Assembly (NCBI GenBank): GCA_036172245.1
Contig: JAYWIR010000057.1
Coordinates: 797,681 to 817,680, forward strand
Reading direction: 5' to 3'
Length of the DNA: 20,000 nt
Origin: Raillietiella orientalis
Taxonomy: Eukaryota
In this document: piece after piece, positions 181-20,000 of the stretch
Layout of the letters: every line of letters starts with the position of its first letter
How positions within the stretch are numbered: position 1 is the stretch's first letter
Translations under genes and position numbers: made by a program
Notes under the pieces: model-generated
Told to the model about the DNA's origin: nothing
What the model saw: only the letters and a program-made list of their open reading frames with translations
Databases searched by the model: none

Positions 181-290
181 TGATACCTAGCCATGATACT
201 TTCCCCAGGAACAGCTAAGTATGGAAAGGAATATAAGTTAGGACTTTGCTCCCCTTGGGCCTACATTAAGGCTCATAACTTTTGCAGCAG

Positions 291-1236: not shown

Positions 1237-1244
1237 GTTGGTAA

Positions 1245-1795: not shown

Positions 1796-1826
1796 ATCAA
1801 CAAATTTAACTGCGTAGTTAGGCTGA

Positions 1827-1858
1827 GCGCAATCTGGTCAGTGTTACCCAGATTGCGC
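1827..1858 (+). other. CRESS rolling-circle origin stem-loop with nonanucleotide CAGTGTTAC
   Basis: GCGCAATCTGG (1827-1837) and CCAGATTGCGC (1848-1858) form a perfect 11-bp stem. The loop TCAGTGTTAC contains CAGTGTTAC (1839-1847), a NAGTRTTAC-type nonamer. Confidence 0.88.
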
Positions 1859-2185
1859 AGTTATCTGACCCTCTATTCATCTCGTCCTGCATCACATCTT
1901 GGAGTGACCAAGGTTGAAATTGACGCAGGGAGAGAAGATCTTCGGGACTGATTCCCTAAAATGCAGCCGAAGACTCAACAGATTCTAGCCGCCAATCATT
2001 AAAATTTAATGGGCGGCAGGAAATCCACGAATTGGCTTCCATCATTGAGGCTAGTTGCCTCAAAGGATGGGCAAAATCGTTTTGTGGCGCATGCCCGGCA
2101 CCAAGGAAAGAAGTCCGTCATTGCCGAGACCTCCATAGAAGGATGCGCGAAGGCACATAGAGCAGCGAAGTCGAAAGCTTGGAAC

Positions 2186-2505
2186 AGTGTCAGCATCCTG
2201 AACTGCACTTGCATTCTGATCCGCGCCATCGTCAGGATTCCAGAGGTGGCATCCCGAGGTTGAGCCATCAGGTCTTTCAGGCGGATCCTAGGCGTTTAGC
2301 CCGTTCTTTGGCGGCGTAGGGGGAGTACAAAAGAAAAAACAGGGTTCAGAGGACGGGGGCCACGAAGATGTTACAAATAGCCGCATGTTCCGGCAAGATA
2401 AACTAGCCATTAATTAAGGGGCTAGAGGCCAGCACTGCCTTATGAAGGCAGTCCGACCACGCCTCTTCGGCGCCGAAGTCGCCCAGTGGAACGCCAAGAT
2501 AAGTT
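2186..2505 (-). pseudogene. Decayed Tx1-like ORF2 fragments (post-RT region)
   Basis: YLGVPLGDFGAEEAWSDCLHKA and RIRLKDLMAQPRDATSGILTMARIRMQVQFRMLTL match element S (5325-6005). Contains stops and an internal deletion. Confidence 0.85.
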
Positions 2506-3120
2506 GGCGGCTTTTTTCCCGCTTTTACCGGCGAGCCGACGGTAAGCAGCACTGCTGGCTGGAGATCACGGTCGCCACCGTCCTCCATGGTGCTGCACGA
2601 ATTCGAGTGCTCGTCTCCGGGTAGCGTCGTTTGACGCCCCGGGGTGAGCTTTCGCACCTTCGCGGTCTGCGCTGCGCGCCTCAGGGCCTTAGCCCGGCGC
2701 GCTACGGCTACCGCGCTGGTGATCCGACGTGCGGCGATCTCAGACTCCGTTTCAGAGTGTGATTGAAGCGCGGGAGCTTCGCTTCTCACCTATCGTGTCG
2801 ATTCGGAGGTGCTCGCGGATGGAATCCCGACACTTCCTTTTTCGCGATCACCGGAACATCGTTCCTGACGATCGCAGCTTTCGCGCTATGCGCAACTGCG
2901 GTGGTAGCCTTGGCATCGGCATAGGGAACCTTCGCGCGAGTCTTCATCGCGCTACTGTTTCTTACATTGGAGAGGCTCTTGCAGTTAGGTTGCGGAGAAT
3001 TTTTGGGAGATTTTGTTTTTCTCCCTTTCTACACAACCTTCCACCCTCCGTCCGTTCCCTCGGAGCGCTCCTCGACTTTCGTGAGCAACGCTACCGGGCT
3101 TTCCTCCCCAACCGCCTGGG
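2506..3120 (-). pseudogene. Probable decayed Tx1-like ORF1 C-terminal low-complexity region
   Basis: GC-rich, Ala/Lys/Glu-rich translation containing EGTDGGWKVV*KGRKTK, comparable to EEGWQKVGKKK and ETEWQVATAKKSKK in the ORF1s of Z and U. Confidence 0.5.
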
Positions 3121-3301
3121 GAAAAAAATAAGCAGCCACGCCATCGCAAACAATAACTCAAGTTTTGTCGACTGCTTCAGGTTAATTGTGTGCAGCATAA
3201 TAAATTACACACAGAACGTCAAACACATTTTATTGACTTACTCATATTATGTCAGGTCACAAATTTGAAATAATAACAGCATAAAGAGATCAATAGTTCC
3301 A

Positions 3302-4344
3302 TTACCGCATGGGTTCAGCTGCAGGCAGTATTTTTTCATGTTGCCTTAGCCTGACCGCCCTTGGAAATCTATGCTCAAAGTTACGTATGGCTTCGTGCAA
3401 CTTGGTCCTGATGTCTGCTACACGGTCAGTACCCAGTTGTGGCGTAATCATTTCAATGGGTCTGAACGACAACTCCTTCGGAAATTTCGTGCAGAAGGCT
3501 TCCCATTCAGGCGAGAAATCCTCCTTTGACTCAACAGCCTGTTGCGACATATGGAGCGATCAACAGAGTGTGGACTTAGGGTGTATATTAAGCATGAATG
3601 ACCCAAGCCTTACCAACGTAGCATCTGCATCGTAGTCGTTGAAGTTGGTGCGGGCTTGACCGATGAGATATCTAGCTCCTATATGATAATACTTAGCGTT
3701 TGGCATAGTACTCGCATAGCACACGCCCATGAACACCATATTCTCAGGACAGTTTGCAGCTTGCGCCCAATTGACCAGACGTTTGAATGCCTGGTACGCC
3801 ACTGCATGCCGATGAGTTCCAGCAGGTGGGGACAGGAATCGAAGCAGAGCATCCTGGGATATAGTCACGGGTTTAAATGAGGGTCCTTGGACTGTGAAAG
3901 GCACTGATTCAATCATATGGGCAAATCCTGCCAGCTCCAGCACACGAAGAGTACTGCAAAAGTGACCTAATGTATGGGCCACATCCATCCCCTTCTTTTA
4001 AGATCTTTATCTTGCAAACAAAGAGCGCCAGACTTTTAGAGGATACCCTGCACCTCTAGTGTTATCTTCCCGGATACCGGTGTGATGATTAGTCAGCGAC
4101 CATGACACTTTTGTAGCTATAACTAGGACCATGCAATTCGTCGCTAGTTGCTGATTCAGGGCAGCTTGGCTGGCTGTTCGTTGGGCTGGTGTCAAATCAT
4201 GCCGTTGAGGAGTTGGTCGCCAGTCTCCATCCGGTATTAATACACCATTAATGGACCTATACCGAATCATATCATAGGTTAGCAGAGCATATATGCCGTT
4301 GATCATCAGCGTCAATTGCGCATCTTTGTATTGCTTGGTGCTGT
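3302..4344 (-). pseudogene. Endogenous RNA-virus nucleocapsid/capsid-like gene, tentatively qinvirus-like, 5'-truncated
   Basis: ORFs 4007-4351, 3560-3988 and 3302-3550 share one frame, split only by stops at 4007-4009 and 3560-3562. Intronless and lower in GC than the LINEs. Motifs ATKVSWSLTNHHTG, HTLGHFCST, PAGTH, YHIGARYL and PKSTL are recalled from qinvirus-like segment-2 proteins (unverified). AT-rich trailer at about 3122-3301. Confidence 0.55.
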
Positions 4345-4374
4345 TTATCACCCGGGTGCGCCGGGGCGTTTATT
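4345..4374 (-). repeat. Conserved LINE 3' terminal motif, copy 1 (S)
   Basis: AATAAACGC CCCGG CGCAC CCGGG TGATAA. Confidence 0.9.
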
Positions 4375-6857
4375 ACAAAACTATCCGGGAACAGAGTTCC
4401 CGAACAAGGAATACAGAAAAGACGAAGGAGGGGGGTCCCCGACACGCAGGTCGGTATACAGAAAGTCCGGAACTGGAGGGAGGGAACCACAAATACACAG
4501 ATAAAAAACAGAAATAAAGATATGGGGAAGGTAGGGACAGGGTACTTTGGTACGGCCGTTCCTTCCTTTCAGAACCGCCGATGGATGCCGGCGATCTCTC
4601 TCCTCACGCCCTCTGGTAGATGGGCCCACTCGGCAGCCGACGACATGCTCGCGCTGGCTAATCCGGTGGGCTGACGAAGAATGGCAAGCTTCTCCAACTC
4701 TCGGTGGGCCTTGTCGATGGCGTGGGTGCAACAGACCGTTGCGATGACAGCACCTAACGACAGGCCGCCTGGCATGAAGAAGCGGCTCATCAAGTCTCTC
4801 GCGGTGTCCCCCTGGTGCAGGAGAGCGGAGGACAGCCTCCGCCACAGTCCTAGGAGGGCACCGCAGTCCAGGATCAGGTGCGGGAACGTTTCCACTTCCC
4901 CGCACTGCTTACAGTTTGGGGAGACAACTCCCCCGGAGACACGGTTCGTCCGCTGGCTGGAGTGAAAACCCCAATGCACCAGCATGATGACGTCATGCTT
5001 CCATGAAAGGGGTAACAGAAGTGTTCAAACAGGAGGGAGGGACCACAAGTTCTTCGGGGGCACACTCAAGTGTTCACTCCACCGAAGGAGTCCCTTCGGG
5101 ATGTGGCCAGGCGTGGCGGAGTCTGCTAGCTCGCAAGTCCTCCAGCCGCCAATGTGTCGTGTTGTTCCTGCGATAGTGCGGGCGACCTCCCATCTCGCCG
5201 GTTCGCAGCTGTCATCTCTTGCCCTGAGGGCTGACAGCATGTCGGCGAGGGGCGTGACGGCCAGGCGAGTCCACTTCTGGCTGTTGCACACCTCATCCAC
5301 CGTGCAGTACGGGGAGAGGTGAACCTAACGGAGTTCCAGGAGGGAAACATCTTGGTGCTTTGCCCAGCCATGCAACGGTTCCTGCCACCAAACTTCAAAG
5401 TTCGTTGGGCGACAGGGAATCCATTCCTGGGCTGCCGGGAGCCGGTAGAGGGTTTTCAACGGGAAACCGTCGCTCCTCGTGGCGCGCTCCGTATGCGGCC
5501 GCAGCGACAGAAGTTCATCGCTGCCGGTGCAGCGCCGCAGGAGCAGACGCGCAGGAGCGAACCACGGGGTGGACCAAAGGTTGGCGCACAGGGTCAACAT
5601 CCGAAACTGCACCTGCAGCTCCATTCTCTCCAGCGTCAGGATACCTAAGTTTGCATCCCGACGCGGAGCCGCGAAGTCTTTGAGGCGGATCCTGGACCTC
5701 GCAGGTCCCCACAGAGCGTTCCTCAACAGGCTGTGCGCCTGGAGCTTGGCCGAGTAGGGGGCCGGGCAAACAAAAAGCAGGGGTCGCAAGAGGGGGGCAA
5801 CGAAGGTGTTAAATATCGCGGCCCGCTCCGACAGGAGGAACCTGCTATCGTGAAACGGGCTCAGAGCACTCGTAGCCTTCCGAAGGCAGTCCGACCACTT
5901 CCACTGAGCTGATGTTCTCCAGCAGAACGCCCAGATACTGGATGCAGGAAGCGGTCCGGATCCCCAGGCGGATCCAGTCGGACTGCCCCTCTCACGCCGC
6001 ACCAATACGAACGACCACGCTCTTGCTCCGGTTTACGCTCATACCCGCTCCCCTGCGAATCAGCTCGAAGAAATTATCGAGACTGGACGCCGGGGTGGTC
6101 ATGGGTAAAAGGAGAAGCAGGTCGTCGGCATAGACCGCCACGGCCGGAGTTCCCGGACAGGAGCTCGGCAGGTTGGCCAGAGTCAGCCTGTACGCCCTCA
6201 GCACCAACTCAAAGAAGATGCTGAAGAGCAGGGCGCTTAAGCTGTCTCCCTGCCTGATACCCCGCCCTATGGGAACGCCGTACACGTGGCGCCCGCTGAA
6301 AGAGATATAGCATAGCGCGTGGCGCCTGCAGGAGCGCAAGTAGGCGATGAGGTGCGTCGGGTGACCTAGGCGTTCCAGAATCTCCAGAAGGAGATCCTGG
6401 TTTACGCTGTCGAGCACTTTGCAGAGATCGACGGCGACCGTTAAGGCACCCGGCGTTCCATCGTGCCCTGAACACCGCCGCTTACCTTTGGCAGTGGCGA
6501 TTTCGGCTGCCTGGCTCTGCTGCGCCACGCGCTGCTGCAACTCGAACCATGTTCGCGCGAGGAAGAGATTCGCGTCCATGCACCGCCCCGTCTGCTCCGG
6601 ACTTACCAAGGACTCCGCGATTCTCCCCAGCCGCGCGACCCATAGCTTCGAGAAGAACTTGACGTCCGAAGTCACTAAGGTGATCGGACGCCAGTTGCTG
6701 AGGTGGCGGAAATCCCAGCCTTTCGGCAGGAGCCGCACCTTTGCTTAGCGGAAAGAAGCGGCAACATATCCCGTCTCCCGCATCAGCGAGGAAAGACTCA
6801 GCACCAGGGGGACGAGCTCCGACGCGAAGCACTGAAAGAACTCCGCGGGCAGGCCAT
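4345..6857 (-). mobile_element. Tx1/L1-type LINE segment S (subfamily 1): RT, C-terminal zinc finger, 3' UTR; decayed
   Basis: GLPAEFF, NWRPITL, GIRQGDSLS, YADD, CKQC...HLILDC. Several frameshifts and deletions (YAVP lost). 3' terminal motif at 4345-4374. Confidence 0.93.
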
Positions 6858-6858
6858 A

Positions 6859-7243
6859 CGTGCACAGCTGGCCAACGAGATGTGCGCTGCCATGAACGCG
6901 CGCAACTTGTTGGCCGGTGACGCCGGGAAAAATACGAGGATCGACCACATGTTCCTCGACAACCACCTGTGTTCGTGGGTGGGAAATCGAGGCGCAGTGC
7001 CATTCGAACTTGCCGACCATCCCCGGCTTGTGCTAGAGATACACCCGCGCGGTAGAGGTACACCCTCCACAGCGTGTCGTTTGCCAGGGGACTGGTTGCG
7101 CCTCGCAAGAGCAGCGCAACATCTTCGCTCGTTCCTGCAAGGCTTCCATCTGCAGTTGCTCGCGGACTGGGACGACTTCAAGAGCTCAGTCCGCGAGTTC
7201 TGCGACCAGTTTCCCCTAAACCGTCTCCCTCCAGGTTTCGGTG
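6859..7243 (+). mobile_element. Segment T: C-terminal half of a LINE AP endonuclease, inverted relative to its neighbours
   Basis: LANEMCAAMNARNLL...IDHMFLD...LADHPRLVL...LPPGFGV, closely similar to Z at 16440-16822. Confidence 0.9.
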
Positions 7244-7274
7244 TTGCCACCCGTGTACGCCCGGGGCGTTTATT
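7244..7274 (-). repeat. Conserved LINE 3' terminal motif, copy 2 (X)
   Basis: AATAAACGC CCCGGG CGTA CACGGG TGGCAA. Confidence 0.88.
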
Positions 7275-10200
7275 GAAAACTACAAAAACATTAAACTAGG
7301 CCCCACTAACGGCCGCACAGCACCGAACCTGGCGGAACGCCGGGACGGAGCCCGGCATGACGCTCCTCGGCAGTGGAGGGGGATGGGGAATAAAACAAAA
7401 ATAAAAATAAAGATATAGAAAACCAAAAAGAGTTTGGAGGGAGGGGAAGGGATCATTGTCCACTAGGAGGAGGGCCCATCCTTCGCAGGATGCCCTCCAG
7501 GTCCATCTTCATGCTTCCCAGATGGGGCCATCTCGCAGCTCTCCGCATGAAGCAGACCGCATACGGGATGACTACCCTCTCGTTGGCATCCACTGCGTCG
7601 CGAATGTCGCTCCACGCCGACACGATGCCTCGGATGCAGCAGAGGTCCCCGAGGGCTGCGGCGGGCTGCAGGGCGTCCCGCACGAAGAGGGGCCGAAGAA
7701 CGTCTCTGGGCGTGCTGCCCATTGGGAGCCCGAGTGTCGTCCCGAACCGTTCCCTCAGGGTTCGGAAAGCAGCACAGTCAACTAGTAGGTGGGAGAGCGA
7801 TTCCCGCTCCCCACACCTGGCCCACTCAGGGCTTACACTTCCTCGCGTGCAGTGGAAGCGGCGCGCGTTGCAGGGTATACCCCAGTGCAACAGCAGCAGC
7901 GCCGTCTCTTGCCACTTTAGAGGGAGAAAACTGGATCCGATGAGAATTGGGGGCCACTTGAGGTCATCCGTCGGGATGCCGAGCAGCTCGCCCCATCTCA
8001 GAAGTCCACGTGGGAGGGCACTAGGGGTCGTGGCGTCTGCCAGTTCTCCCATGGTCCAGCCGCTCATCTTTTTTCCCTTCCTGCGATTCAGCAGGAGACT
8101 TGCCACTTTGGCGTCCGGCCGCTGGTTAAGGCCCTCCGTAGGAAGGGCAGCGTCGAAGCCAAAGGGGTGGTCTCCGCCCACGTGCTCCTGGCGGGACACT
8201 CCAGAGTAGTCCGTAGGGTGCAGCAGGCGTTGGGGACGAGTCGCAGGCGGTTCCATTCACGTCCAGTCTGAAGGTTCAGCTTGGCACACGTGCCAACGGA
8301 TTCCTCCAGCCAGGCGGAGGAGTTGGCGGGGCTGCATACCGTCGAGCCGTTCTCTCTCACCAGGGATTCCATGCGCCCAAGGTGAAGGCCGCATTTTCTG
8401 AACTTCCGGCCGTGGCACAGAAGGTATGACGCGAGTCCTTGCGTCCTGGATACACGGCTGGCGAGGATGCGGGCTGGAAAGCACCAAGAGGTGCTTCATG
8501 TATTTGCTGCGATGGCGAGGGTGCGCCATTGCAGCTGTATGTGCAGGCGTTCCAGCGTCAAAGGGCCGAGACCGCCGTCCCGACGTGGAGCGCATAAGTC
8601 CTTTAGAGGCACACGTGGCCTCCCCATGCCCCAGAGGGCGATGCGGAGAAGGGCTTTCGTCCTCTTTTTCAACTCAGGGGAGACGGGGCACACAAAAAGC
8701 AGGGGGCGGAGGATGGTAGCCGCGAACGCGTTCCACACTGCGGCCCTTTCCGGCAGAAAGAACTTGCCTTCTAGGAACGGTCCGATTTCCAACTCTACCT
8801 TTTGGAGACGACCTGACCTGGCTTCTGCGAGGCAGAAGTCCCCCAACGGAACACCCAGGTACTTCAGGTACCTGGCCGTGGGAATCCCCATGCGGATCCA
8901 GTCAGGCCGTCGAGCCTACGTCGCACCCACCGGTACCACCGACGACTTCGCCTTGTTAACCTGCAATCCAGTCCCACGGCTTAGCAGATCGTAGAAATCC
9001 TCGACTGCGGTTGCCGGGGAGGACATGGGCAACATCAGCAGAAGATCGTCGGCGTATGCAGCTACTGCGGGCGTGCCAAGGCACCAGCTTGGTAAGGCAG
9101 CCAAAGTCACCCTGTACGCTCTCAGCACCAACTCAAAGTAGGTGCTGAAGAGCTGGGGACTGAGGCTATCGCCCTGCCGTATGCCCCGCCGCACCGGCAT
9201 GCCGTACACCTGTTGGCTGGAAAAGCAGATGTTAACAATGGCGTGGCGCCAGTAGGAGCGCAGGAAGGAGAGAAGGGAGGGTGGGAAGCCCATGCGACCC
9301 AGGAGCTCCAACAGTAGCTCCTGGTCAACGCAGTCGAACGCCTTATGGAGATCGACCGCGATCGCTAGGGCCCCCTTCCCAGCCCGGGTGTCCATTCCCA
9401 GCCCAGCTGGCGGCCCCAAAGTGGGGTTGCCAATCTTTCCGCCAGTGTCGTTTAGGCAGCGCTGCACATGGAACCATGTGCTCGCGAAGAACAGGTTGGC
9501 ATCCATACTTCTCCCGGGAACAGCGTATGTCTGCTCCGGGCTAATTATGGAGTCTGCCACCTGTCCTAGACGCGAAGCCCACAGTCCAGCGACCAGCTTG
9601 GCGTCCGTATTCACAATTGTGATCGGACGCCAGTTGCCTAGGGATCTCAGGTCTCCTCCCTTCGGGAGGAGCCTCACACGGGCTGACCGAAACGAGGCGG
9701 GAACGTCGCCTTCGTCTCGGATCAGCGCGGTCAACTGGAGCACCAGGGGGGCCAGCTCTGCTGCGAAGCATTGAAAAAATTCCGCAGGCAGGCCGTCCTT
9801 CCCTGGAGCCTTACGCCTCTTGAGCCTTTTAATACCGGCGAGAATTTCACCGGTAGAAAAAGGCTCGTTGAGGCTGTTCCTGTCCTCCTCCCCTATTGCC
9901 GGGGCTCCGTCCGGAAGCAGGAGCCGCGATGCGTCTCGCTCTGGGGGTGCCCTAGCGTAGAGGGAGGAATAGTAATGCCGCACGAGGCGCCTGATCGCGG
10001 GTGGGCCCGATCGCTCCCGGCCTTGGTCGTCCAGCAAGCTGGTCGACCCGGATTGCCAGGCTTGGCGCTGGGCTCCGGCTCGATATTCGGCCAGGCGACG
10101 GACATTGGGGGTCCTCTCGTACCGGCGGGCCTGTAAATAGGCCGTTTGGTTCCGAACCCCCTCCCCAAATCCGGGGGGCAGGCGGTGCAGGGGAACTCCT

Positions 10201-10584
10201 CGCAGAACTCGCGGACCGAGTCCTCTAAGAGGTCCCAATCTATGAGACTGCGGAGGGTGACGCCTCTCAGGAATTTGCGAAGGTGTTCCTGCGCACCTGA
10301 GAGCCGCGTCCAGTCCCCAGGGAGCCGCCTCGCCCTGGACGGGGGTCCTTTGTCGCGCGGGCAAACTTCGGCGATTATCCTGGAATGGTCCGACAGCGTC
10401 GACCCAAGTTTCCCCCGTTTGCCAACCCGTGAGCACAGGTGGGCATCCAGGATGAAGTGGTCGATGCTGCGGTCCATTCCCTCCGCGTCTGCCAACAAGT
10501 TCCGCGTGCGCATGGCAGCGCACAACTCGTTGACCGTGCGTTCTTGTGCTTCGGGCTCACCTGACAGCAGACGGAGATTAAAGT
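7244..10584 (-). mobile_element. LINE segment X (subfamily 2): endonuclease C-half, RT, zinc finger, 3' UTR
   Basis: FNLRLL...IDHF...SDH, APGKDGLPAEFF, NWRPIT, DLHKAFD, GIRQGDSLSP, YADD, KYLGV. Premature TAG at 8916-8918 and several frameshifts. Stop at 7453. 3' motif at 7244-7274. Confidence 0.95.
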
Positions 10585-10614
10585 TTATCACCCGGTCACG
10601 CCGGGGCGTTTATT
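10585..10614 (-). repeat. Conserved LINE 3' terminal motif, copy 3 (Y)
   Basis: AATAAACGC CCCGG CGTGA CCGGG TGATAA. Confidence 0.9.
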
Positions 10615-11460
10615 AATAATAAACTGGTCAGGGACAATGTCTCGAACCAACGACAGAACGACAGGGAACATAGACAAATTACCGGCACGCAGGCCTGGTA
10701 AACAAACCGCTCGCAACGTGGAAGGAACGAGGGGAAAACAAAAAAAAATCAAAAACTGGAGGGAAGGGTAACGGGTTTTTGGTTAGGCTCCGTACTCACG
10801 GGGATTTAAACGATGAGCACCTGAAATGTTCCGGAGCCTATGGGGACGCGGGTGTAAAAGGAAAATACAAAATTAGTTTATGGAGGGTAGGGCAATGATC
10901 ACCGGGTTGGCCGCTGCTGAGCGTGTGTAAACCGGCGGTGTGTTGCGGCGAGATTCCTTTTTGACTCCTCTGTCAAATGAGGCCATCTAGCGGATGCACC
11001 CATGTAAAAGGATGCTTTACTGATTACCTCTTGGTGCTGTCCGTTGATTACCAACGCCTGGCGGACGGAAACTATCGCGCGTATGCAACCGATGGTTGCA
11101 ATCCTTGCGCTTAGGGACAGCCGCTCGGCGTGAAGAATCGTCGCAGCAAGTCTCTTGCGGTGTCCACGGGATGCAATAGTGCTGTTGACAGCCTACGCCA
11201 TAGTCCTTGTAGGACACCGCAGTCCAGAAGTAGGTGCGGGATCGACTCCGTCGACCCGCACGGAACGCAGTTGGCAGATGCAAGTCCCCCGGAGTCTCGA
11301 TGCCAACGCTCGTTACACTGAAAACCCCAGTGAACGAAAAGCAGCACAGCTTGTTTCCAAGCAAGGGGGAGCAGCGAACTGTCAACACACTGTGGAGGGA
11401 CTACAAGTTCTTCGGGGATGACAGCAAGTTCTTCTGCCCACCGGAGGAGTCCCTTTAAGT
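10585..11460 (-). mobile_element. LINE segment Y (subfamily 1-like): ORF2 C-terminus and 3' UTR
   Basis: KGLLRWAEEL...LPLAWKQ...HWGFQC...CVPC...HLLLDC, similar to the S tail. Premature stop at 11111. 3' motif at 10585-10614. Confidence 0.9.
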
Positions 11461-11570
11461 ACAACGAGGAGTGGCGGCGTCCGCCAAATCACTCGTCTTC
11501 CAGGCGCCAAGGAGTTTTCTCGCGAGTGTTTTCAGGGTTTTTAGGTGTGAGCGGTTGTTCCTGGGCAGAG

Positions 11571-14500
11571 TTGCCCGAGGACGCCGCAAAGACGGCGGTG
11601 GGGGGCGAGCGCGCCTCGTCCCCCCAGCCCATGGATGTGGGGGCGTTCTCCCCCACGGAATCGTCCCCCGGCCCGGCGAGGGCTTGGAGCGCGGTGGTGG
11701 CGGCGCCTGCGCCGCCCCCCGCAGAGGAACAGCGGGCGTATATGGCCGACGGCTACAACCCGGCCCTACTTTATAAGGTAGGTGGCCTATACTCCCCCGC
11801 GGTCTTGCGGTCCTTCGCCGCGGAGTTTAAAAAGCTAAAAGTCCCGGAGGAAGAAGTCCTCGGGCTTTCGGTTAGAAGTGGCGGGCAGCTTGTTGAGCTG
11901 AACTGCAAGTCTGCAGGGATGGCTCAGCAGCTGCTCCGCCTGCCGGTGACCGTGAACGGTCGAAGAATCTTCCCGTTCACGGCGCACAATTCCATCGTTG
12001 TCCATCTCACCGGAATTACCATGCGAATGGCAAAGACCGCCGTTCGCGAGAGTCTGGAAAAGTTCGGGACGGTCCACGCGTTGTGGGCAAAACCCAATGT
12101 CCTGGGTTACACCAGGGCATTCAGTGGTTACACCGCTGCCCGCGTGACCGTCCGAGCCGAGGGTGGGCTACCCCACAGACTGCAGGTCGGGGAGGAGGAG
12201 ATCGACCTGTGGTATGTGGGGAAACCCGTTTACTGCGGCTTTTGCCAGGTGTCGGGGCACCTGAAGAAAAAGTGCCCCAACATCGTGTGCTTAGGCTGCG
12301 GTGGGAAGGGGCACATCAGGCGGATGTGCCCCAACAGGAAAAGGTCCGGTCCCGTTGGCGCAAGGAAGGAAGAGACGCCGAGGGAAGAGGACAAGGGCCA
12401 GGAAATGGCCGAATCCCGCCCGGCCAACCAACCCGATGCTCAGCCATCCTGCAGCACAGAACCTGCTGGAGAGAACGCCGAGAACGAGGAAGGTTGGCAA
12501 AAGGTAGGGAAGAAAAAGCCCCAGAAGAAGGAGGCAAAAAAGGTAAACAAGGCGGCGCCGAAAAAGCAGAAACCGGTCGTCCGCGCTTGTACGGTGAAAA
12601 TCGAACGCATCTCGATCTCCAGAGCCGTAAAGAAAGTAACGGTAAAGGCGATCGATACCGTCGATCCTGAGCCGGTTGTGCCCGCAGTGACGTCACCTGA
12701 GTGCCATTTCGCGCAGTGCCTACTGCCGGATGGTGCTCCTGCGCTCGGGGAGGAAGTTTGTTCCAGATTGTCAGGACCCTTTACGATCACAGAGATCATC
12801 TCCGCCATCAGTAAATTAAAAGCAAGGAAGGCACCAGGGGAGGACGGCCTGCCCGCGGAGTTTTACAAATACTTCGCGCCAGAGCTGCCCCCCCTGGTGC
12901 TCAGGTTAAGTCAGCTGATCCGCGAACACGACGAAGTTCCCGCCTCGTTCCGGTCAGCAAAAGTACGTCTCCTGCCGAAGTCAGGAGACCTACGCAACAT
13001 TGGCAACTGGCGTCCCATCACAGTAGTGAATGCGGACGCAAAGTTGTATGCCAAGTTGTGGGCTGAGCGTTTGGGGCGAGTGGCCGCTTCCGTGGTGAGT
13101 CCCGAGCAGACCTACGCTGTTCCCGGACGAACCATGGAGGCCAACCTGCTCCTCGCCAGCTCATGGTGGCAGTTGCGACAACGCGTTGCTCAGGATGGTC
13201 AAGGAAGCCTCGCGCTCCCCTCTGACCAAGAAGATCGGATAGAGGGTGGGATGGACTCGGCGGGAGCCCTTGCCGTCGCGGTCGATTTGCACAAAGCATT
13301 CGACTGCGTCGACCAGGATCTCCTTCTGGAGCTCCTGGAACGCATGGGCTTCCCGGCCGTGCTCCAGTCCTACCTGCGCTCCTGCTGGCGCAACGCGTCT
13401 ATTAATATTTGTTTCAGCGGCCGGTACGTGTACGGCGTGCCAGTGCGCCGCGGCATACGGCAGGGTGACAGCCTGAGCCTCTTGCTCTTCAGCATCTACT
13501 TCGAGTTGGTGCTGAAGGCTTACAGGGTAACTCTGGCAACCCTGCCGAGCTCGTGTGCCGGCACGCCTGCCGTGTCGGCCTATGCAGACGATCTTCTGCT
13601 GCTGCTTCCCGGGTCCACCCCGGCGAGTGCGCTCGAGGAATTCTTCGAGTTGCTGCGCCGCGGGACGGGCCTGGAGGTGAACAGGGCGAAGTCGTCCATG
13701 GCTTGTGTTGGCTCGGCGTGGGCTGGACGGTCGGACTGGATCCGCTTGGGGATCCCCACGGGCAGGTGCTTCAAGTACCTTGGCGTTCCGTTGGGTGACA
13801 TCTGCGCAGCAGAAGCCTGGTCCGACCGTCTCCAAAAGGCAGCGTTGGCGATCGGTCCGTTCCAAGAAAGCAAGTTCTACTTGCAGGAACGGGCCGCGGT
13901 GTGGAACGCGTTCGCGGCCCCCCTCCTTCGCCCCCTACTTTTTGTGTGCCCCGCCCCTTATTTTGTCCGAAAAAGAGCAGCGGGCCTCCTGAGGACAGTC
14001 CTTTGGGGCAAAGGGAGGTCCCGTGTGAGACTCAAAGACTTGTGCGCTCCACGTAAGGACGGTGGACTTGGCCTACTTACGCTGGAGCGCATGGAAGTAC
14101 AATTACAGTTCAGAACGCTCGCCCTTGCAGCGGAACTGTGGGACACGCCCTGGTGCGTTCCAGCACGCCTTCTGGCCCAACGTGCCTCTGGATATGGCGG
14201 ACTCTCGTCGTTTCTCTGGGCTTGCGACCGCAGACAAGCGCATTGCGGCTTTCACCTGCGTCGCATGGCCGTTGTGGCTCGGAAGAACGCATGGATCTCC
14301 TGCCTTCCTGGGAACCACTCGGCATGGCTGCACGAGTCAGTCTCCTCTTGGGAAAAGATCCACGTACCGGCAGGTACAAAGAACACTTGCCTGAAAAGGC
14401 ACGCCCGCTGGACGCTGCAGGAAATCGTGCAATCCCACGATCAGTTTCTGTGGGCCTTTATAACCCCCCTTGCTCCAGTGCTGCCCTTTTTAGTAAACGC

Positions 14501-15152
14501 CAGGAACAGCAGAGAGCAGGGAAAATGGACAGTGTCCTGCACCATAGATGGTAGGACACGAAAGATCGAGGCGTGGACATCTCGGCAGCTTACGGACGCT
14601 GCGACGCCGAGTGTCCCGCCTAACTTAATTCGACGCTGGGGCGAGCTACTCGGACTATCTCCGGAGGAGATGAAGTGGCCCCCAGCGTCCTGGAACAGTG
14701 TATCCCTCCCCTTGAAATGGCAGGAGGTGGCGTTGCTGGTTTTACACTGGGGTCTACCCTACAAAGCATGCCTCTCTCACTGCACACGGGGGGCTGTGGA
14801 TGCCAATTGCGACCGGTGCGGAGAAAAAGAGACATTTCCCCACCTTCTTATTGAGTGCAATGCTCTCCACCCTCTCTGGGATCGGCTTGCAACGATCCTA
14901 AACATTCGCGGAGGTGGCCCTAAAGAAATTTTTAGGCGCCTCTTCTTGCATGACGCCTTGTCCCCACCGGCCTCAGTAGCAGTTCTTTGCTGCATCAGAG
15001 GGGTCGTGGCGGCTTGGAACGCCACAAGAAGAAGGCGCCAAGTTAGCGGCAATGCTACATATTGGACCCGCCTCTTTGTGAGGAACATTTGCAGGTGGCG
15101 ACACCTGGTTGAACGACGGACGCAGCTTGTGAAGATCCTGAACAGGATCTAG
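11571..15152 (+). CDS. Uninterrupted chimeric ORF: Z ORF1 N-part (2x CCHC) fused in frame to W reverse transcriptase and zinc finger; no endonuclease
   Basis: The 1244-codon open frame (11418-15152) contains CGFCQVSGHLKKKC, CLGCGGKGHIRRMC, KAPGEDGLPAEFY, DLHKAFD, YADD (13581) and CDRC...HLLIEC. Start uncertain: TTG 11571 (aligns to the U ATG) or ATG 11631. Confidence 0.8.
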   Translation: MPEDAAKTAVGGERASSPQPMDVGAFSPTESSPGPARAWSAVVAAPAPPPAEEQRAYMADGYNPALLYKVGGLYSPAVLRSFAAEFKKLKVPEEEVLGLSVRSGGQLVELNCKSAGMAQQLLRLPVTVNGRRIFPFTAHNSIVVHLTGITMRMAKTAVRESLEKFGTVHALWAKPNVLGYTRAFSGYTAARVTVRAEGGLPHRLQVGEEEIDLWYVGKPVYCGFCQVSGHLKKKCPNIVCLGCGGKGHIRRMCPNRKRSGPVGARKEETPREEDKGQEMAESRPANQPDAQPSCSTEPAGENAENEEGWQKVGKKKPQKKEAKKVNKAAPKKQKPVVRACTVKIERISISRAVKKVTVKAIDTVDPEPVVPAVTSPECHFAQCLLPDGAPALGEEVCSRLSGPFTITEIISAISKLKARKAPGEDGLPAEFYKYFAPELPPLVLRLSQLIREHDEVPASFRSAKVRLLPKSGDLRNIGNWRPITVVNADAKLYAKLWAERLGRVAASVVSPEQTYAVPGRTMEANLLLASSWWQLRQRVAQDGQGSLALPSDQEDRIEGGMDSAGALAVAVDLHKAFDCVDQDLLLELLERMGFPAVLQSYLRSCWRNASINICFSGRYVYGVPVRRGIRQGDSLSLLLFSIYFELVLKAYRVTLATLPSSCAGTPAVSAYADDLLLLLPGSTPASALEEFFELLRRGTGLEVNRAKSSMACVGSAWAGRSDWIRLGIPTGRCFKYLGVPLGDICAAEAWSDRLQKAALAIGPFQESKFYLQERAAVWNAFAAPLLRPLLFVCPAPYFVRKRAAGLLRTVLWGKGRSRVRLKDLCAPRKDGGLGLLTLERMEVQLQFRTLALAAELWDTPWCVPARLLAQRASGYGGLSSFLWACDRRQAHCGFHLRRMAVVARKNAWISCLPGNHSAWLHESVSSWEKIHVPAGTKNTCLKRHARWTLQEIVQSHDQFLWAFITPLAPVLPFLVNARNSREQGKWTVSCTIDGRTRKIEAWTSRQLTDAATPSVPPNLIRRWGELLGLSPEEMKWPPASWNSVSLPLKWQEVALLVLHWGLPYKACLSHCTRGAVDANCDRCGEKETFPHLLIECNALHPLWDRLATILNIRGGGPKEIFRRLFLHDALSPPASVAVLCCIRGVVAAWNATRRRRQVSGNATYWTRLFVRNICRWRHLVERRTQLVKILNRI
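12683..12697 (+). repeat. Target-site duplication of W, left copy
   Basis: CGCAGTGACGTCACC, identical to 15404-15418. Confidence 0.93.
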
Positions 15153-15403
15153 AGGACCTTTCGGCGCGCAATGTGATTCCCCTCCCGCCCCCCCCTATCC
15201 CCCAAACATAAGTGTCCTCCCCAATTTTTACATTTTCTTTTTTGCTTTGTTTTTTATTCCCGTTGCCGCGCGCTTGAAGGACCTCGCCGGTTGAGAACCG
15301 GCAAGAAGCAGGCTGCCTTGTGGTGAACCATCAGGCTCTCCACACGAAAATAACATGTATTTTTATTTTTTCAAATAAACGCCCCGGCATATCCGGGTGA
15401 AAG
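12698..15403 (+). mobile_element. LINE segment W (subfamily 3): 5'-truncated, TSD-flanked insertion with intact RT
   Basis: Begins at PECHFAQCLLPDGAPA (compare X PERDASRLLLPDGAPA). Stop at 15152, C/T-rich 3' UTR, terminal motif at 15374-15402, flanked by a 15-bp direct repeat. Confidence 0.93.
15374..15402 (+). repeat. Conserved LINE 3' terminal motif, copy 4 (W)
   Basis: AATAAACGC CCCGG CATAT CCGGG TGAAA, followed by G and the TSD. Confidence 0.9.
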
Positions 15404-15418
15404 CGCAGTGACGTCACC
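15404..15418 (+). repeat. Target-site duplication of W, right copy
   Basis: CGCAGTGACGTCACC. ORF1 resumes here (AVTSPSADD...FAQAAEELAA, matching U FARAAEELAA). Confidence 0.93.
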
Positions 15419-15965
15419 ATCAGCTGACGACAATGCCGTGCCGGCATTGCCAGCGAAGGACGTCTGCGCGCCGATCGATGAAGCCGCCCCTGTCGCGCCT
15501 GCGCAAAGCGTCGGTGCGGAAAGCGAGGAGGCGGCGCGTATAACGGACGCGACCTTCGCGCAGGCCGCGGAAGAGCTGGCAGCCATGTTACGGCAGCCTG
15601 CCAAGGACGAGAAGAAGGCCTTGAGACGACCGGCAACGGTGAAGGGCCCTTGAAAATTCCGAGTCCGAAACCGAAGCCGGTTGTTCTACTTCCGAAGCCG
15701 TGCCTAAGAGGAAGGCTGGCAAGAAGACCGGTTGCCCGAGACGAGTCATCCCTCAGGTGGAGGAGGCCATGTCCTCGGGCACGGAGGAGGAGGCAATGTG
15801 CGTCGCGCCACGCGGCCCCACTCCGATCCGTGTCTCGGAAGCCAGCCCCATGGAAGTCGCTGTGGACGACGTGCTCCCGTGTGAGCAGCCGACCGTCGTC
15901 ACGGCCGCCAACGAGACGCCTCCCGCAAGGAAGGAGGCCGCCTCCACCCCACAATAAACACACCA

Positions 15966-16822
15966 ATGCGTGGGCTCGGCTCCTGCCGCCGCTTGCGCAT
16001 CATGTGTTGGAACGTCAACGGGTTGCGCGACGACGGTAAGAGGCGAGACGTAGCCGCCATACTGCGAGACTTTGACCTGGTGCTCCTGCAAGAGACGCAC
16101 GTTCTCAAAGCAGAAGAAGTCCAGGAAATCGAAAGAATCGCGGGAGGGCGGCTACTGCGGAGTGACCTTTATGCTTAAGCCAGCCGTCGACAACGCACTG
16201 CGCAGCGTCAGGTTCGACGAGGACGGTCGAGTTGGGCAGCTTGCGTTCAAGTGGTCCGACTCGATCGTTTTCGTGGTGACGAACCTGTACGCTCCGGTGA
16301 GCAGCCACAGGGCCGAGGAACGCACTGCGTTCTTCGAATCCCTGCGGCGAGACTGGTTGGCTGAAGCAAGCGTACGGCGGGCGCACCTCATCGCGGGCGA
16401 CTTCAATCTCCGCCTGCTGGCAGGTGCGCCCAGCAGTCAAGCACGACTGGTCAACGAGTTGTGCGCAGCCATCAACGCGCGCAACTTGTTGGCCGGTGAT
16501 GCCGGGAGAGATCGGAACATCGACCACATGTTCCTCGACAACCACCTGTGCACGCGGGTGGGAACTCGAGGAACGCTCCCGGCACAGCTGTCCGACCATC
16601 CACGGCTCGTGCTCGAGATACATCCACGCGACAAGGGCCCTCCCCTGAAAACGTGGCGCCTGCCAGGGGACTGGTTGCGCCTCGCAGGAGCGGCGGAACA
16701 TCTGCGCGCATTCCTGCGAGGATTCCATCTTGAGACGCTCGCGGACTGGGACGAAATGAAGTGCTCAGTCCGCGAGTTTTGCGACCAGTTTCCCCTGGAA
16801 CGTCTTCCGGCGGGCTTCGGCG
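15966..16822 (+). pseudogene. AP endonuclease domain of Z ORF2
   Basis: WNVNGL, LQETH, NLYAP, AGDFN, IDH, SDH. Frameshift near 16150. Homology ends at LPAGFGV. Confidence 0.93.
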
Positions 16823-16853
16823 TTATCACCCGGGTACGCCCGGGGCGTTTATT
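16823..16853 (-). repeat. Conserved LINE 3' terminal motif, copy 5 (V)
   Basis: AATAAACGC CCCGGG CGTA CCCGGG TGATAA. Confidence 0.9.
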
Positions 16854-18646
16854 AATAAACTCTACATGCGTGGTACAAGGCCCCACCACGGCCGTAAACA
16901 CAGGACCTGTCGGGACACCGGGACGCAGCCCGGCGTGGCACTCCCCGACAGCGAAAGGGGATGAGGGGAAAAACAAAAAGAAAAAAGAAAGAAATAAAAA
17001 AAACAAAAAGAGTTTGGAGGGCAGGGTAGGGATCACTGGTCGCTGTGAGGAGGGCCCATCCTTCCAAGAAAGCCCTCGAGGTCTCTCCGCATATCTCCCA
17101 GCTGGGGCCATCCGGCAGCTCTCCGCAAGAAGCGTTGGGCGTATGGGATGACATCCCTCGCCTGTGGACCCACTCCTTCGTTGTTGGCGTCGCTCCATGC
17201 CGCCACGATGCCACGGACACAGCACAAGGCTGCGATGGCTGCGGCTGGCTGCAGTGCGTCCTTCACGAAGAGGGGCCGAAGAACGTCTCTGGGGGTGCTG
17301 CCCGTAGGGAGCCCGAGGATCGTCCCGAACCGTTCCCAAAGGGGTCGGAGGGCAGCACAATCCACAATAAGGTGGGGAAGCGACTCCCGCTCCCCGCACC
17401 TGGCACACGCAGGATCCACAGCTCCCCTCGTCCAGTGGAAGCGGCGCGCGTTGCAGGGTAGACCCCAGTGCAACAGGAGCAACGCCGACTCTTGCCACTT
17501 GAGGGGCAGGATCCTGGATTCCTTCATCACCGGGGGCCACTTCAGCTCATCCCTGGGGATGGCGAGCAGCTTGCCCCATCTTAATAACCCTCGCGGCTGG
17601 ACGCTCGGGGTCGTGGCGTCGGCCAGTTCTCCTGTTGTCCAGCCGCTAATCAACTTCTCGCGTCCCTCGATGCAGCAGGAGACTTGCCACCTCGGCGTCC
17701 GACTGCTGTGAAGTGCCCTCCTCAGGAAGGGCAGCGCCGTAGCTAGGCAGGTCGTCTCTGCCCACGTGCATCTTGCTGGACTCTCCAGGAGATTCCGCAG
17801 CGTGCAGCGGACGTAGGGGCTGCATCGGAGACGATTCCACGTTTCGTGGCTCCTCTGGTTAACCGCTGCCCACGTTCCAATATTCTCCTCCAGCCAGGCG
17901 GGGGAGTTGGCGGGGCAGCAAACCATCCAGCTGTTCTCCTTGGCCAATGTTGCCATGCGCCCGAGCAGTAGGCCGCATCTTCGCATCTTCCGGCCACGGC
18001 TCAGAAGAAAAGACGCGAGTCCATCGCACCGGGACACACGGCTGGCCAGGAGGCGGGCCGGAGTGCACCAAGGGGTGCTCCACATCTTCGCTGCGATGGC
18101 GAGGGTTCGCCACCGCAGCTGCTTCTCCACGCGCTCCAGCGTCAGGAGGCCAAGACCGCTGTCCCGACGCGGAGCGCACAAGTCCTTCAGAAGGACTCGG
18201 CCCCCCCCCTTGCCCCAAAGGGCGATACGGAGGAGGTCCTTTGTCCTCTTCTTCGATTCCACGGTGGGGGGGCAAACAAAAAGCAAGGGGCGGAGGATGG
18301 GGGCCGCGAAGGCGTTCCAAGCCGCGGCCCGTTCCGGCAAGTGAAACTTGCCTTCCAGGAACGGGCCGATCGCCGTCTCGACTTTTTGGAGGCAGCTGGA
18401 CCACGCTTCCGCAGGGGAGTAGTCCCCCAACGGCACACCAAGGTACTTGAAGCACCTCGCCGTGGGGATCCTCAGACGGACCCAGTCCTGCTGCCCTGCC
18501 CACGCCGCACCTATTGGCACAACCGACGACTTCGCCCTGTTAACCTGCAGTCCGGTCCCGCGGCTGAGCAGATCGAAGAAGTCTCCGACCGCCTTTGCCG
18601 GGGTGGACATTGGCAACAAGAGCAGAAGATCGTCGGCGTACGCTGC
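16823..18646 (-). mobile_element. LINE segment V (subfamily 2): ORF2 from YADD to the 3' end
   Basis: Open frame from AAYADD to the stop at 17033, with KYLGV and CARC...HLIVDC. Tail GRMGPPHSDQ resembles X RRMGPPPSGQ. 3' motif at 16823-16853. Confidence 0.93.
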
Positions 18647-20000
18647 TCGATGTCCGGCCGAACGCCTTGTGCGCTCTAGGGTGGACGTGTTTTCTCGGTG
18701 CTCCTCGTGCCAGGAAGTCTCCCCCAGTGCAAGCGTCGTGTGGTTCGGTGGTCGATCAGGCAGCGATGCCTGACGCGACCACCAGGGATGGCCAGGGGGC
18801 AGCGGAACGCCGCCCTCAGAGGCGATGGAGGTGGGGCATCCGCCCCCACAGAATCGGTCCCCGCTGCAGCGCGGGCGTCGAGCGCCGTTGTGTCAGCGCC
18901 ATCGCCTGCAGCCGCGGCGGAATTGTCGGCCTATGTAGATGAGGGGTGCAACCCCTCATTGTTCTACAAGGTAGGCAATTTATATTCTTTAGAGAGCGCG
19001 CGCGCCTTCTCGAAGGGCATGCGCGCTCTCGATGTGAAAGAGGAGGAGCTCAGTGCTATGACCATCCGCAGCGGGGGTCAGTACGTTGAGGTCATCTGCA
19101 AACATGCAGAGCTGGCCCAACGACTGCTTAAAACCACCGTTGTGATGGGGACGCGCAGGCTTCTCCCCAATACGGCGGACCGCAGCATGGTGGTCCACCT
19201 GTTAGGCGTGACCGCGCGAATGCGCAAAGAACAGGTTCGCGCCGCTTTGGACCAGTTTGGAACGGTCCACGCGCAGTGGACGAAAGTTAGTCCTTTCGAG
19301 GACTACACGGGGCTGCAACACGGCCTCACTGCTGCGCGCGTGACCGTTCGGGAGGGCTGCACTCTTCCCCACAAACTGGTGGTCAAAGGCGAAACCGTCG
19401 ACCTCTGGTATGTGGGGAAGCCGAAATACTGTGGCTTCTGCAATACGTCGGGCCACCTCAAAAAGAGGTGTCCCAATGTGCAGTGCAAAGTATGCGGCAC
19501 AATGGGCCACACGAGGGAGGTGTGCCCAAAAGCAGCAGTGCGGGTGGTTTCCAAGAGAAACCTTAAAAAACGCGCCCGGCTTCTGCAGAAAAGACTGGCG
19601 GCGAAAGCTGCCGCGAAGGCTCTGCCACCCGCGCCCAAGACCCAGGCCGCACCCGCGACCCCGGCGACCAACGCCGAAAAAGTTGAGGGAGCCGAACAGG
19701 AGACTGAGTGGCAAGTGGCAACAGCCAAAAAATCAAAGAAGGAGAGGAGGATGGAAAAGAAAATCGCCTACCAACAGAAGAAGAAAGAGCAGGGTAGCGC
19801 GATAATTAAAGAGTGCAGCGTCGTAGTCGAACGCGTTCTCCATGTTGCTGAACGCTGCCGGAAAGAACTCGCCGCTACCGACGACCTCCCCTCTGTTGAC
19901 ACAGTCAACAGCGAGGGGAGCGAGCCGGCGGCGGCGTCCGTCATCGACACCACCATCGATGACGTAGCCTTCGCGCGAGCCGCGGAGGAGCTGGCAGCCT
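18647..20000 (+). mobile_element. LINE segment U: 5' UTR and ORF1, running off the window end
   Basis: ATG at 18766, two early frameshifts, then open from about 18836 to 20000: YVDEGCNPSLFYKVG...DLWYVGKPKYCGFCNTSGHLKKRC...CKVCGTMGHTREVC, homologous to Z ORF1. Absent from the ORF track because it has no stop. Confidence 0.92.

Follow-up and report, generated by a model that had tools for sequence, protein, structure and literature searches.

A 5'-truncated L1/Tx1-like retrotransposon inserted in frame into ORF1 of a related element in Raillietiella orientalis

The window analysed here, a 20,000-nucleotide stretch of the Raillietiella orientalis genome, is a Russian-doll nest of related elements, nested in the order D, Z0, A, C, Z, then W and B, then Z2, and their decay tracks this order. 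Within the nest, a 2,706-bp 5'-truncated copy of an L1/Tx1-like non-LTR retrotransposon (W, 12698-15403) that lacks the endonuclease lies inside ORF1 of the element Z (Table 1). ORF2 of Z is interrupted in turn at 16821 by insert B, an antisense copy whose 3' motif occupies 16823-16858. Z itself splits an older copy, C, which is recognizable from a coding remnant on the minus strand that is matched by the W and B proteins (11132-11520, tblastn within the window), from the resemblance of 11084-11510 to element D (blastn), and from a 3' terminal motif that aligns at 10585-10619. A second Z-type copy, Z2, presents the homologous place without the W insertion and therefore serves as an empty-site comparator. 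Inversion of the 3' part of one element was considered as a source of the arrangement of sense endonuclease and antisense reverse transcriptase (RT) and was ruled out, because the lineages of the parts are only 60% identical in the endonuclease. Neutral segmental duplication is disfavored for the A/Z0 and B/Z composites, given a dN/dS of ~0.3 in flank and insert alike and the open frame of B. The similarity between 6835-6853 and a GDFN-coding stretch was judged coincidental, the stretch being the antisense of the GLPAEF motif of D.

Table 1. Parts of the nest surrounding the W insertion, in window coordinates
Feature	Coordinates	Strand	Basis
C: 3' ~0.9 kb of older family copy, split by Z	10585-11517	-	tblastn, blastn, 3' motif, X1 contig
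Z 5' untranslated region, ~115 nt, no upstream ATG seen	11516-11630	+	X1 contig start, Z/Z2 similarity, codon-position GC
Z ORF1, N-terminal 355 codons: conserved core, two CCHC zinc knuckles, Lys-rich region	11631-12697	+	collinear homologues, zf-CCHC, AIR2 knuckles
Left copy of target-site duplication	12683-12697	+	exact 15-mer, twice in window
W coding part: ORF2 cut between endonuclease/linker and RT; RT (YADD) and C-terminal CCHC finger kept	12698-15152	+	RVT_1, zf-RVT, L1 ORF2p match
W 3' UTR	15153-15403	+	five-copy alignment; W-like X1 contig
Right copy of target-site duplication	15404-15418	+	exact 15-mer
Displaced Z ORF1 tail, frameshift ~15650	15419-15957	+	P0019 match, codon-position GC, Z2 homology
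Start of Z ORF2 with APE-type endonuclease; frameshift within 16121-16159	15966-16821	+	Exo_endo_phos, homologues in two frames, translations
B: antisense family copy at end of Z endonuclease; remaining ORF open (619 aa frame)	16823-18706	-	tblastn, ORF list
Z2: second Z-type copy (5' end and ORF1), start approximate	18720-19999	+	blastp, repeat spacing D2, D3, D6, D11, translation

Related DNA is available from the run X1, which contains 15% of the sampled window words and from which 73 contigs are 90-99% alike to the window (3 of the 73 at 99% or more), figures that say nothing on copy number or expression. One X1 contig departs from the window sequence at 11517, and another, of Z type, begins matching at 11515 and has unrelated sequence before that point. 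Similarity between Z and Z2 also begins within 11516-11630. These boundaries place the 5' end of Z at ~11516 and not at 11461, the limit given in an earlier note on this DNA, a position that falls within the antisense coding remnant of C. A scan of 11300-11700 for bacterial-type promoters and terminators, which is unsuited to a eukaryotic element, returned nothing, and no tandem repeats were detected between 10500 and 16000.

ORF1 of Z is collinear, without frame breaks, with P0016, P0017, P0019 and Z2, and all of its conserved domains lie upstream of the junction with W. Two CX2CX4HX4C motifs are visible in the translation. On these knuckles the Pfam family zf-CCHC reaches an E-value of 4.8e-4 and 20.5 bits, below the cut-off of 20.8, and in the homologue P0019 it reaches 29.9 bits; in addition, the AIR2 knuckles in the PDB match Z ORF1 with an E-value of 3e-5. 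An ORF1 that combines an RRM with CCHC knuckles, termed Type I, is described for Tx1-like and non-mammalian L1 elements (PMC5203782; Khazina and Weichenrieder classes). Of the CCHC knuckles, at least one of which marks a Type I ORF1p, Z has two, and on these, the part verified, its ORF1 appears to be of the same kind; upstream of the knuckles, Pfam returned no RRM match at E-values up to 5. Modelled with AlphaFold from an alignment of 5 sequences, Z ORF1 gave a mean pLDDT of 40, too low for use. In a feature search, ZCCHC3-like clusters lay close to Z ORF1 (rank 6, score 0.94), which is a lead only, and the RNA-binding domains of ZCCHC3 are absent from Z ORF1 in Pfam at E-values up to 5.

Flanking W is a perfect 15-bp direct repeat, CGCAGTGACGTCACC, located at 12683-12697 and 15404-15418. 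The 15-mer has two matches in the window when up to one mismatch is allowed, compared to 0.01 expected, and two matches were reached in 0 of 200 shuffles. Together, W and one copy of the repeat amount to 2721 bp. Homology to Z2 stops at residue 454 of P0001 (blastp, 42% identity over residues 91-454) and picks up again past W in the displaced tail of Z, at 15546-15584. Homology to A begins exactly at residue 455 (66% over 343 aa), upstream of which A runs on into a linker, with ~200 more residues plus an APE endonuclease, and homology to P0014 likewise starts at the junction. The CC that closes the repeat may represent 5' microhomology, because relatives have Pro-Glu at this position. The repeat count and the exact switch in homology both agree with the initial proposal of a 15-bp target-site duplication with W placed in frame within Z ORF1.

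The fusion contains no stop or frameshift, within a frame that stays open between 11334 and 15152. In this frame, 11334-11630 is non-coding to judge by base composition at the three codon positions, and therefore the ORF extends from the ATG at 11631 to the TAG at 15150-15152, a length of 1173 codons; the intact long frame reported in the earlier note stands, at somewhat less than the ~1190 codons given there. Downstream of the knuckles, RVT_1 matches P0001 residues 548-819 (Pfam, E 4.4e-21, profile positions 2-204 of 205), YADD falls at residues 750-753, and the RT catalytic motifs are intact. A CX2CX7HX4C motif is visible in the C-terminal finger of W, and its C, C, H, C positions are shared by 11 of 12 distant homologues; Pfam zf-RVT at residues 1111-1182 scores an E-value of 0.003 and 18.6 bits, below its cut-off of 27.5. 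The fusion frame carries no endonuclease, and no RNase H family was detected after the RT (Pfam, E up to 0.01). The order of zinc knuckles, YADD-bearing RT and zinc finger first read from the letters is thereby confirmed, firmly for the RT and, for the two zinc families that score just below or below their cut-offs, through their visible motifs.

In solved structures, residues 439-743 of human L1 ORF2p match W with an E-value of 3e-33, compared to only 5e-14 for R2, and a feature search matched a cluster named after the Tx1 149 kDa protein. Both the structure ranking and the Tx1 cluster are hints. The family combines a LINE-type RT bearing YADD, an APE-type endonuclease that is present in Z (15966-16821) and A (10163-10603) and not in W itself, and a C-terminal Cys-His finger without RNase H, and is therefore probably an APE-type non-LTR retrotransposon of the L1 clade in the broad sense (L1/Tx1). 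Among the matches listed, identity to the closest public proteins is 57-66%, and the W/Z family seems to be undescribed in the libraries searched.

W ends in a 30-nt terminus (15374-15403), AATAAACGCCCCGGC..CCGGGTGATAA, in which AATAAA is followed by a 5-bp GC hairpin and then GGGTGA, with no poly(A) tail. The conserved 3' terminus attributed to the unit at the outset is present in all five copies aligned, and in X1 a contig carrying a W-like copy departs into a different flank after 15400. Folding of the last 64 nt of W gives a small hairpin with a stability no better than that of shuffles (z -0.89). Antisense 3' motifs recur at 4345, 10585 and 16823, at equal spacings of 6238-6240 bp; there is no matching content between the motifs, and the spacing was treated as coincidence. 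A separate observation is that joins between family members recur at one and the same nucleotide.

The remainder of Z that was displaced by W carries one frameshift in each of its two coding parts. In the ORF1 tail, the frameshift at ~15650 ends the frame early, with a stop codon at 15651-15653 in place of the natural one at 15955-15957; the homologue P0019 aligns to 11934-12665 in frame 3 and to 15652-15930 in frame 1, and codon-position GC agrees. The Z endonuclease, which Exo_endo_phos matches from profile position 65 (Pfam, E 7e-7), is shifted within 16121-16159. It is therefore correct, as had been remarked, that the tail and endonuclease are damaged while the fusion is unscathed. However, the chance that both frameshifts fall in the 1403 nt of displaced Z is (1403/4922)^2 = 0.08, or 0.32 when counting Z sequence alone, and the absence of lesions from the fusion, set against the damage to the remainder, is not significant (p ~0.08-0.32).

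Across 84 columns of deep conservation, W has no private change and the older D has 5. Insert B is open as well (0 stops), whereas stops number 3-4 in A and 2 in D; the youngest inserts, W and B, are open and the older A and D are broken. Stop-creating changes make up 4% of the single-base changes in the fusion, and the chance that it stays open is 0.25 at 1% neutral change and 0.06 at 2%. W, and to a lesser degree Z, is thus young, with ~1-2% neutral change at most. Differences from X1 within W, counted on the 40 of 200 differences that are listed, comprise 6 synonymous and 16 non-synonymous changes of 22, with 25% synonymous expected under uniform change, and appear to carry no signal of constraint. 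The fusion is very probably still open because W, and less so Z, is young, and not because it has been selected. The earlier note had itself cautioned that in-frame landing has a 1-in-3 chance and that W may simply be young, and the 0 of 84 private changes, the open frame of B, a decay that follows nesting and the non-significant lesion contrast all favor that caveat.

A search for copies of the junction elsewhere had also been suggested, and no second copy was found in the window, the metagenome contigs, two protein libraries or the listed contigs of X1. Self-comparison of the window shows no similarity that spans the junction, and the exact 24-nt junction has 0 matches in metagenome contigs, where the 8 related loci are all 24-44% identical and match in the RT only. 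Proteins that span both halves number 0 of 11, 0 of 1 and 0 of 150 among those listed in the protein libraries. These are weak tests, as the closest public protein is 66% identical among the matches listed and X1 is the sole related run. None of the 8 X1 pieces among those listed bridges 12697/12698 or 15403/15404. Relatives of the family in X1 are 94-97% alike, and judged by this likeness the W/Z family is recently active.

Taken together, we infer that the fusion is very probably dead on arrival, made by ordinary target-primed reverse transcription within an L1/Tx1-like nest. At a nick within the ORF1 of a full-length Z already in place, a W-type RNA would have been copied into DNA, starting from its conserved 3' terminus; synthesis of the cDNA, or its 5' joining, would have halted between the endonuclease/linker and the RT, possibly via the 2-nt microhomology, and second-strand cleavage 15 bp away would have generated the duplication. 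The join would have kept the frame by a 1-in-3 chance, with the result that the ATG at 11631 now opens a single frame for the ORF1 core, two knuckles, the RT and the C-terminal finger. The product is formally complete, having a 5' end as in an independent Z-type copy in X1, conserved domains, intact RT motifs, and a 3' terminus with AATAAA, which leaves some chance of transcription, translation or trans-mobilization. That the chimera is transcribed from the Z 5' end to the W terminus and yields an endonuclease-less polyprotein of knuckles and RT, which either uses the endonuclease of active relatives, as a new non-autonomous lineage, or makes cDNA at pre-existing breaks, is decidedly unlikely. 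The candidates put forward in the earlier note, a trans-mobilized element or a co-opted cDNA-making enzyme, gained no support from the searches described above.

Repeat-rich loci misassemble easily, and the listed X1 contigs do not bridge the left junction, which would suit an assembly chimera or a product of recombination or deletion. However, a perfect 15-bp duplication around one element's worth of sequence that ends at the family 3' terminus, together with the precise continuation of Z ORF1 after W, is the signature of target-primed insertion and not of collapse or deletion, and an assembly chimera or such a product is very improbable, the least likely reading of all. The continuation of Z also bears on whether the chimera is a non-autonomous mobile unit, spanning from the Z 5' end to the AATAAA and conserved terminus of W and copied in trans by endonuclease-competent relatives, in the manner of ORF1-only half-L1 elements or internally deleted LINEs. 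Such a unit would be helped by the authentic-looking 5' end, by a 3' terminus that is conserved in five of five otherwise divergent copies, and by the recent activity of the family in X1. Nevertheless, a second junction copy is absent from the window, metagenome contigs and protein libraries, the Z remainder is still in place behind W, and W alone lies between the copies of the duplication; the locus is therefore the birthplace of the chimera and not a retro-copy, and we consider a mobile unit unlikely.

Very improbable, in our estimation, is that the fusion is a co-opted host gene encoding an RNA-binding, endonuclease-free RT under selection. Its long open frame, intact knuckles and RT motifs, with both Z lesions outside, are compatible with such a gene, and host genes derived from LINE ORF1 exist, such as L1TD1 (PMC11925450). 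However, L1TD1 and ZCCHC3-like proteins are encoded by single-copy conserved genes that lie outside nests and do not include an RT, whereas the fusion belongs to a crowded nest of its own family, where decaying copies and young ones lie together, and has the equally intact insert B as a neighbor. The contrast in lesions falls short of significance, W differs from X1 as it would without constraint, and no orthologue or similar architecture was found in the protein libraries. Furthermore, the perfect duplication and the low divergence required leave too little time for selection to show. Judged on its sequence, the fusion looks like an ordinary young nested insertion, not a new gene.

W shares with 5'-truncated nested L1-clade insertions the 15-bp target-site duplication, a 5' truncation that removes the APE endonuclease, and possible microhomology, and it shares with L1 an RT that is nearest to human L1 ORF2p among solved structures and a C-terminal CX2CX7HX4C finger. 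Unlike L1 insertions, W has the 30-nt conserved terminus in place of a poly(A) tail, and its join is in frame. Half-L1 (HAL1) and other internally deleted, trans-mobilized LINEs form families of many dispersed copies. Like HAL1, the chimera has a 5' end, ORF1 and 3' end without a complete ORF2 and could be copied in trans, but it has one known junction copy that is still inside its parent element. Endonuclease-independent L1 retrotransposition at pre-existing breaks is described for full-length L1 with a mutated endonuclease or in repair-deficient cells (PMC1920257). The fusion, an RT without endonuclease that is known from sequence alone, could in principle integrate in this way.

As it stands, the locus illustrates how a young nested insertion makes a long chimeric frame, liable to be taken for a novel gene by gene finders and readers alike. 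The repeated joins at one site between members of the family may reveal more about the insertion mechanism of the family than the fusion does. If expressed or propagated, the fusion would be a natural Gag-like/RT single-chain protein, created by a nested LINE insertion at a single stroke, and a possible source of endonuclease-independent cDNA synthesis.

An exact 15-mer, CGCAGTGACGTCACC, is found by a search of the window at 12683-12697 and again at 15404-15418, and with up to one mismatch allowed the sequence occurs twice against 0.01 expected, with none of 200 shuffles reaching two. Between the two copies lies a 2,706-bp element, W (2721 bp with one repeat), that sits inside ORF1 of Z, a full-length L1/Tx1-like LINE copy. 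The coding part of W carries a reverse transcriptase (RT) domain (RVT_1, E 4.4e-21) with its YADD motif and a C-terminal CX2CX7HX4C finger, for which the zf-RVT match falls below the cut-off, and an endonuclease is absent from it. Among solved structures, W is matched best by human LINE-1 ORF2p (W residues 14-337 against ORF2p 439-743, E 3e-33), with R2 proteins at 5e-14 or worse. The plus-strand frame is open from 11334 to 15152 (1272 codons), and within it the fusion of Z ORF1 with the W frame forms an ORF of 1173 codons that ends at a TAG at 15150-15152. Relatives have Pro-Glu at the start of W, so the final CC of the repeat may represent 5' microhomology, in which case the duplication would be 13 bp plus 2.

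Copies of the same family elsewhere in the window, and a public homologue, define the borders of the insertion. The minus-strand copy A aligns with W over 343 residues at 66% identity, and the first residue aligned is exactly 455 in the open frame, the junction codon. Upstream of the equivalent residue, A runs on into an FYxxLY-type linker and then an APE endonuclease, of which the C-terminal two thirds are present, so the 5' truncation of W falls between the endonuclease/linker and the RT. On the ORF1 side, fusion residues 91-454 share 42% identity with Z2, another Z-type copy of ORF1 that begins at about 18720 and extends to the end of the window; the alignment of Z2 to the fusion ends at the junction, and Z2 then matches 15546-15584, beyond W. 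Likewise, the match of the public ORF1 homologue P0019 is split between 11934-12665 and 15652-15930. The 15-bp target site duplication and the placement of W inside Z ORF1, both proposed in the earlier note, are therefore borne out by the repeat and by the switch of comparators at the junction. In Z2, a 1-nt gap (about 18830-18840) puts the ATG equivalent to the Z start codon out of frame, and an in-frame ATG is located 13 codons upstream of it.

Codon-position GC content between 11334 and 11630 is 0.49/0.68/0.61 versus 0.61/0.48/0.71 in ORF1, indicating that this stretch is non-coding in the fusion frame. On the minus strand, copy C has its C-terminal part at 11132-11520 and its 3' terminus at 10585-10619. 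In X1, a related DNA sequencing run seen as contigs matched to the window, a contig along C departs from the window sequence at 11517, and another begins matching Z at 11515 after 75 unrelated bases. These breakpoints place the 5' end of Z at about 11516, with a 5' UTR of about 115 nt and the fusion ORF starting from the ATG at 11631. Therefore, the insertion and in-frame fusion described previously stand, but the 5' end of Z given as 11461 and the length of about 1190 codons do not. The junction lies 3' of all conserved ORF1 blocks, namely the core, two CCHC knuckles, a Lys-rich stretch and a CxVxxERV block. The Pfam zf-CCHC match of Z ORF1 scores 20.5 bits against a cut-off of 20.8 (29.9 bits for P0019), and the knuckles also match those of AIR2. 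In a feature search, the neighbours of Z ORF1 (11631-12695) were hypothetical proteins from arthropods and clusters of ZCCHC3-like zinc-knuckle proteins (score 0.94-0.95); the ZCCHC3 RNA-binding domains were not found in Z ORF1 by Pfam, nor was an RRM, at E up to 5.

The displaced parts of Z are damaged. After the right repeat, ORF1 continues in its original frame to a stop at 15651-15653. Past this stop, the P0019 match and codon-position GC shift frame and stay shifted as far as the natural stop at 15955-15957, which precedes the ORF2 ATG at 15966 by nine bases. The reading frame of the Z endonuclease holds to about 16121 and has changed by about 16159, the Pfam match of the endonuclease starts only at profile position 65, and the antisense insert B cuts the endonuclease at 16821. 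Homologue frames and codon-position GC thus agree with the claim that the ORF1 tail and endonuclease carry lesions and the fusion none.

Across the window, related non-LTR retrotransposon copies are nested in both orientations, and the GC content is about 60% from 2 kb onward. From the sequence, we infer a Russian-doll order of D, Z0, A, C and Z, followed by W and B, each within Z, and lastly by Z2 within B. This would be seven successive same-family insertions into each other within 16 kb (4345-19999). Decay tracks nesting order among the copies in this interval.

State of the reading frames in nested copies of the family
Copy	Position	Strand	State
D	4345-6855	minus	2 stops, frame change, 5 private changes at conserved columns
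Z0 endonuclease fragment	6859-7241	plus	second in nesting order
A	7244-10603	minus	3-4 stops, frame change
Z			2 frameshifts, 0 stops
W	12698-15403		no stops or frame breaks
B			no stops or frame breaks

The open fusion frame is most likely explained by chance plus youth. An in-frame landing has a chance of one in three. With 4% of single-base changes in the fusion creating a stop, the chance that it stays open is 0.25 at 1% neutral change and 0.06 at 2%, and the chance that two frame-breaking lesions both miss the fusion is 0.08, or 0.32 if only Z sequence is considered. W-like pieces in X1 are 94-97% alike, indicating a recently active subfamily, and W has no private deviation at the 84 columns common to at least 10 of 12 distant homologues; both favour the caveat of the earlier note that the landing had a one-in-three chance and that W might simply be young. 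Weak evidence comes from the differences listed between W and X1, a comparison of paralogues with 40 of 200 listed, in which 6 of the 22 inside W are synonymous versus 25% expected. These sequence comparisons confirm the observation and support the structural reading made previously; W is best explained as an ordinary young nested insertion. Truncated LINEs are commonly found nested within other LINEs.

As in L1/Tx1-type LINEs, the APE endonuclease of the family is accompanied by an RT and a Cys-His finger, RNase H was not detected, and ORF1 has CCHC knuckles, as in "Type I". A passage in Ivancevic et al. (PMC5203782) ties the "Type I" ORF1 to Tx1-like elements of non-mammalian animals. One feature-search neighbour is named after the Tx1 149 kDa protein, which serves as a lead only. 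Unlike those LINEs, the family ends in a 30-nt terminus, AATAAACGCCCCGGC-loop-CCGGGTGATAA, with no poly(A). This terminus is kept in all five copies (4343-4382, 7244-7280, 10585-10619, 15374-15403 and 16823-16858), upstream of which the 3' UTRs are otherwise unalignable; the stem is invariant and so offers no covariation evidence. It probably serves the family as the element for RT recognition and polyadenylation. The antisense 3' termini at 4345, 10585 and 16823 are spaced by 6240 and 6238 bp, although the intervening sequences are not collinear; we take this spacing as coincidence.

Joins between family members recur at the same nucleotides. At one site, the ...GGGTGATAA terminus meets the endonuclease GDFN motif within its Asp codon, between C and A at 10584/10585 (10566-10619, minus strand), and independently in X1, where a W-like 3' end (contig ending 15400) leads into 17 bases identical to Z 16402-16418. 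At the other, the join lies after the ...GFG codons at the endonuclease end and brings in an antisense 3' terminus, that of A in Z0 at 7241/7244 and that of B in Z at 16821/16823, each a plus-strand Z-type endonuclease with antisense A or B (6859-7260 and 16438-16860). Flanks and inserts at this second site differ by 20-24%, with a dN/dS of about 0.3 and B open, which argues for two separate same-site insertions rather than a single duplication decaying neutrally. The recurrent joins may reflect a site preference or site-specific insertion, which would be Tx1-like behaviour, or microhomology-guided template switching, and no common target motif is seen between these sites and that of W.

At the left end of the window, where AT content is higher, a minus-strand ORF at 884-1306 matches Viral_Rep (PF02407, circovirus/CRESS-type Rep; E 7.2e-6, 26.6 bits against a cut-off of 26), the only one of 10 ORFs scanned across 1-4900 with a Pfam match, and is possibly an endogenous viral fragment. 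A minus-strand RT fragment at 1881-2501 is much more diverged (31% identical to W).

A search for the junction beyond this locus, in the rest of the window, in metagenome contigs and among the matches listed from two protein libraries, gave no other copy. Self-similarity and repeat searches gave no second copy within the window, and a 24-nt junction sequence had no exact match in metagenome contigs, where eight related loci reach at most 44% identity and cover the RT only. In a library of 5.8 billion proteins, the junction was spanned neither by any of 11 matches of near length nor by the single match at shorter lengths, and none of the 150 matches listed from a 1.84-billion representative library had a best stretch covering both halves. 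Among the matches listed, the nearest relatives are the RT-only fragment P0014 (66%), with a normal linker upstream, and the ORF1-only P0016, P0017 and P0019. A functional reading of the Z-W fusion is unsupported, and the in-frame ORF1-RT chimera would be a curiosity unless it is expressed or copied.
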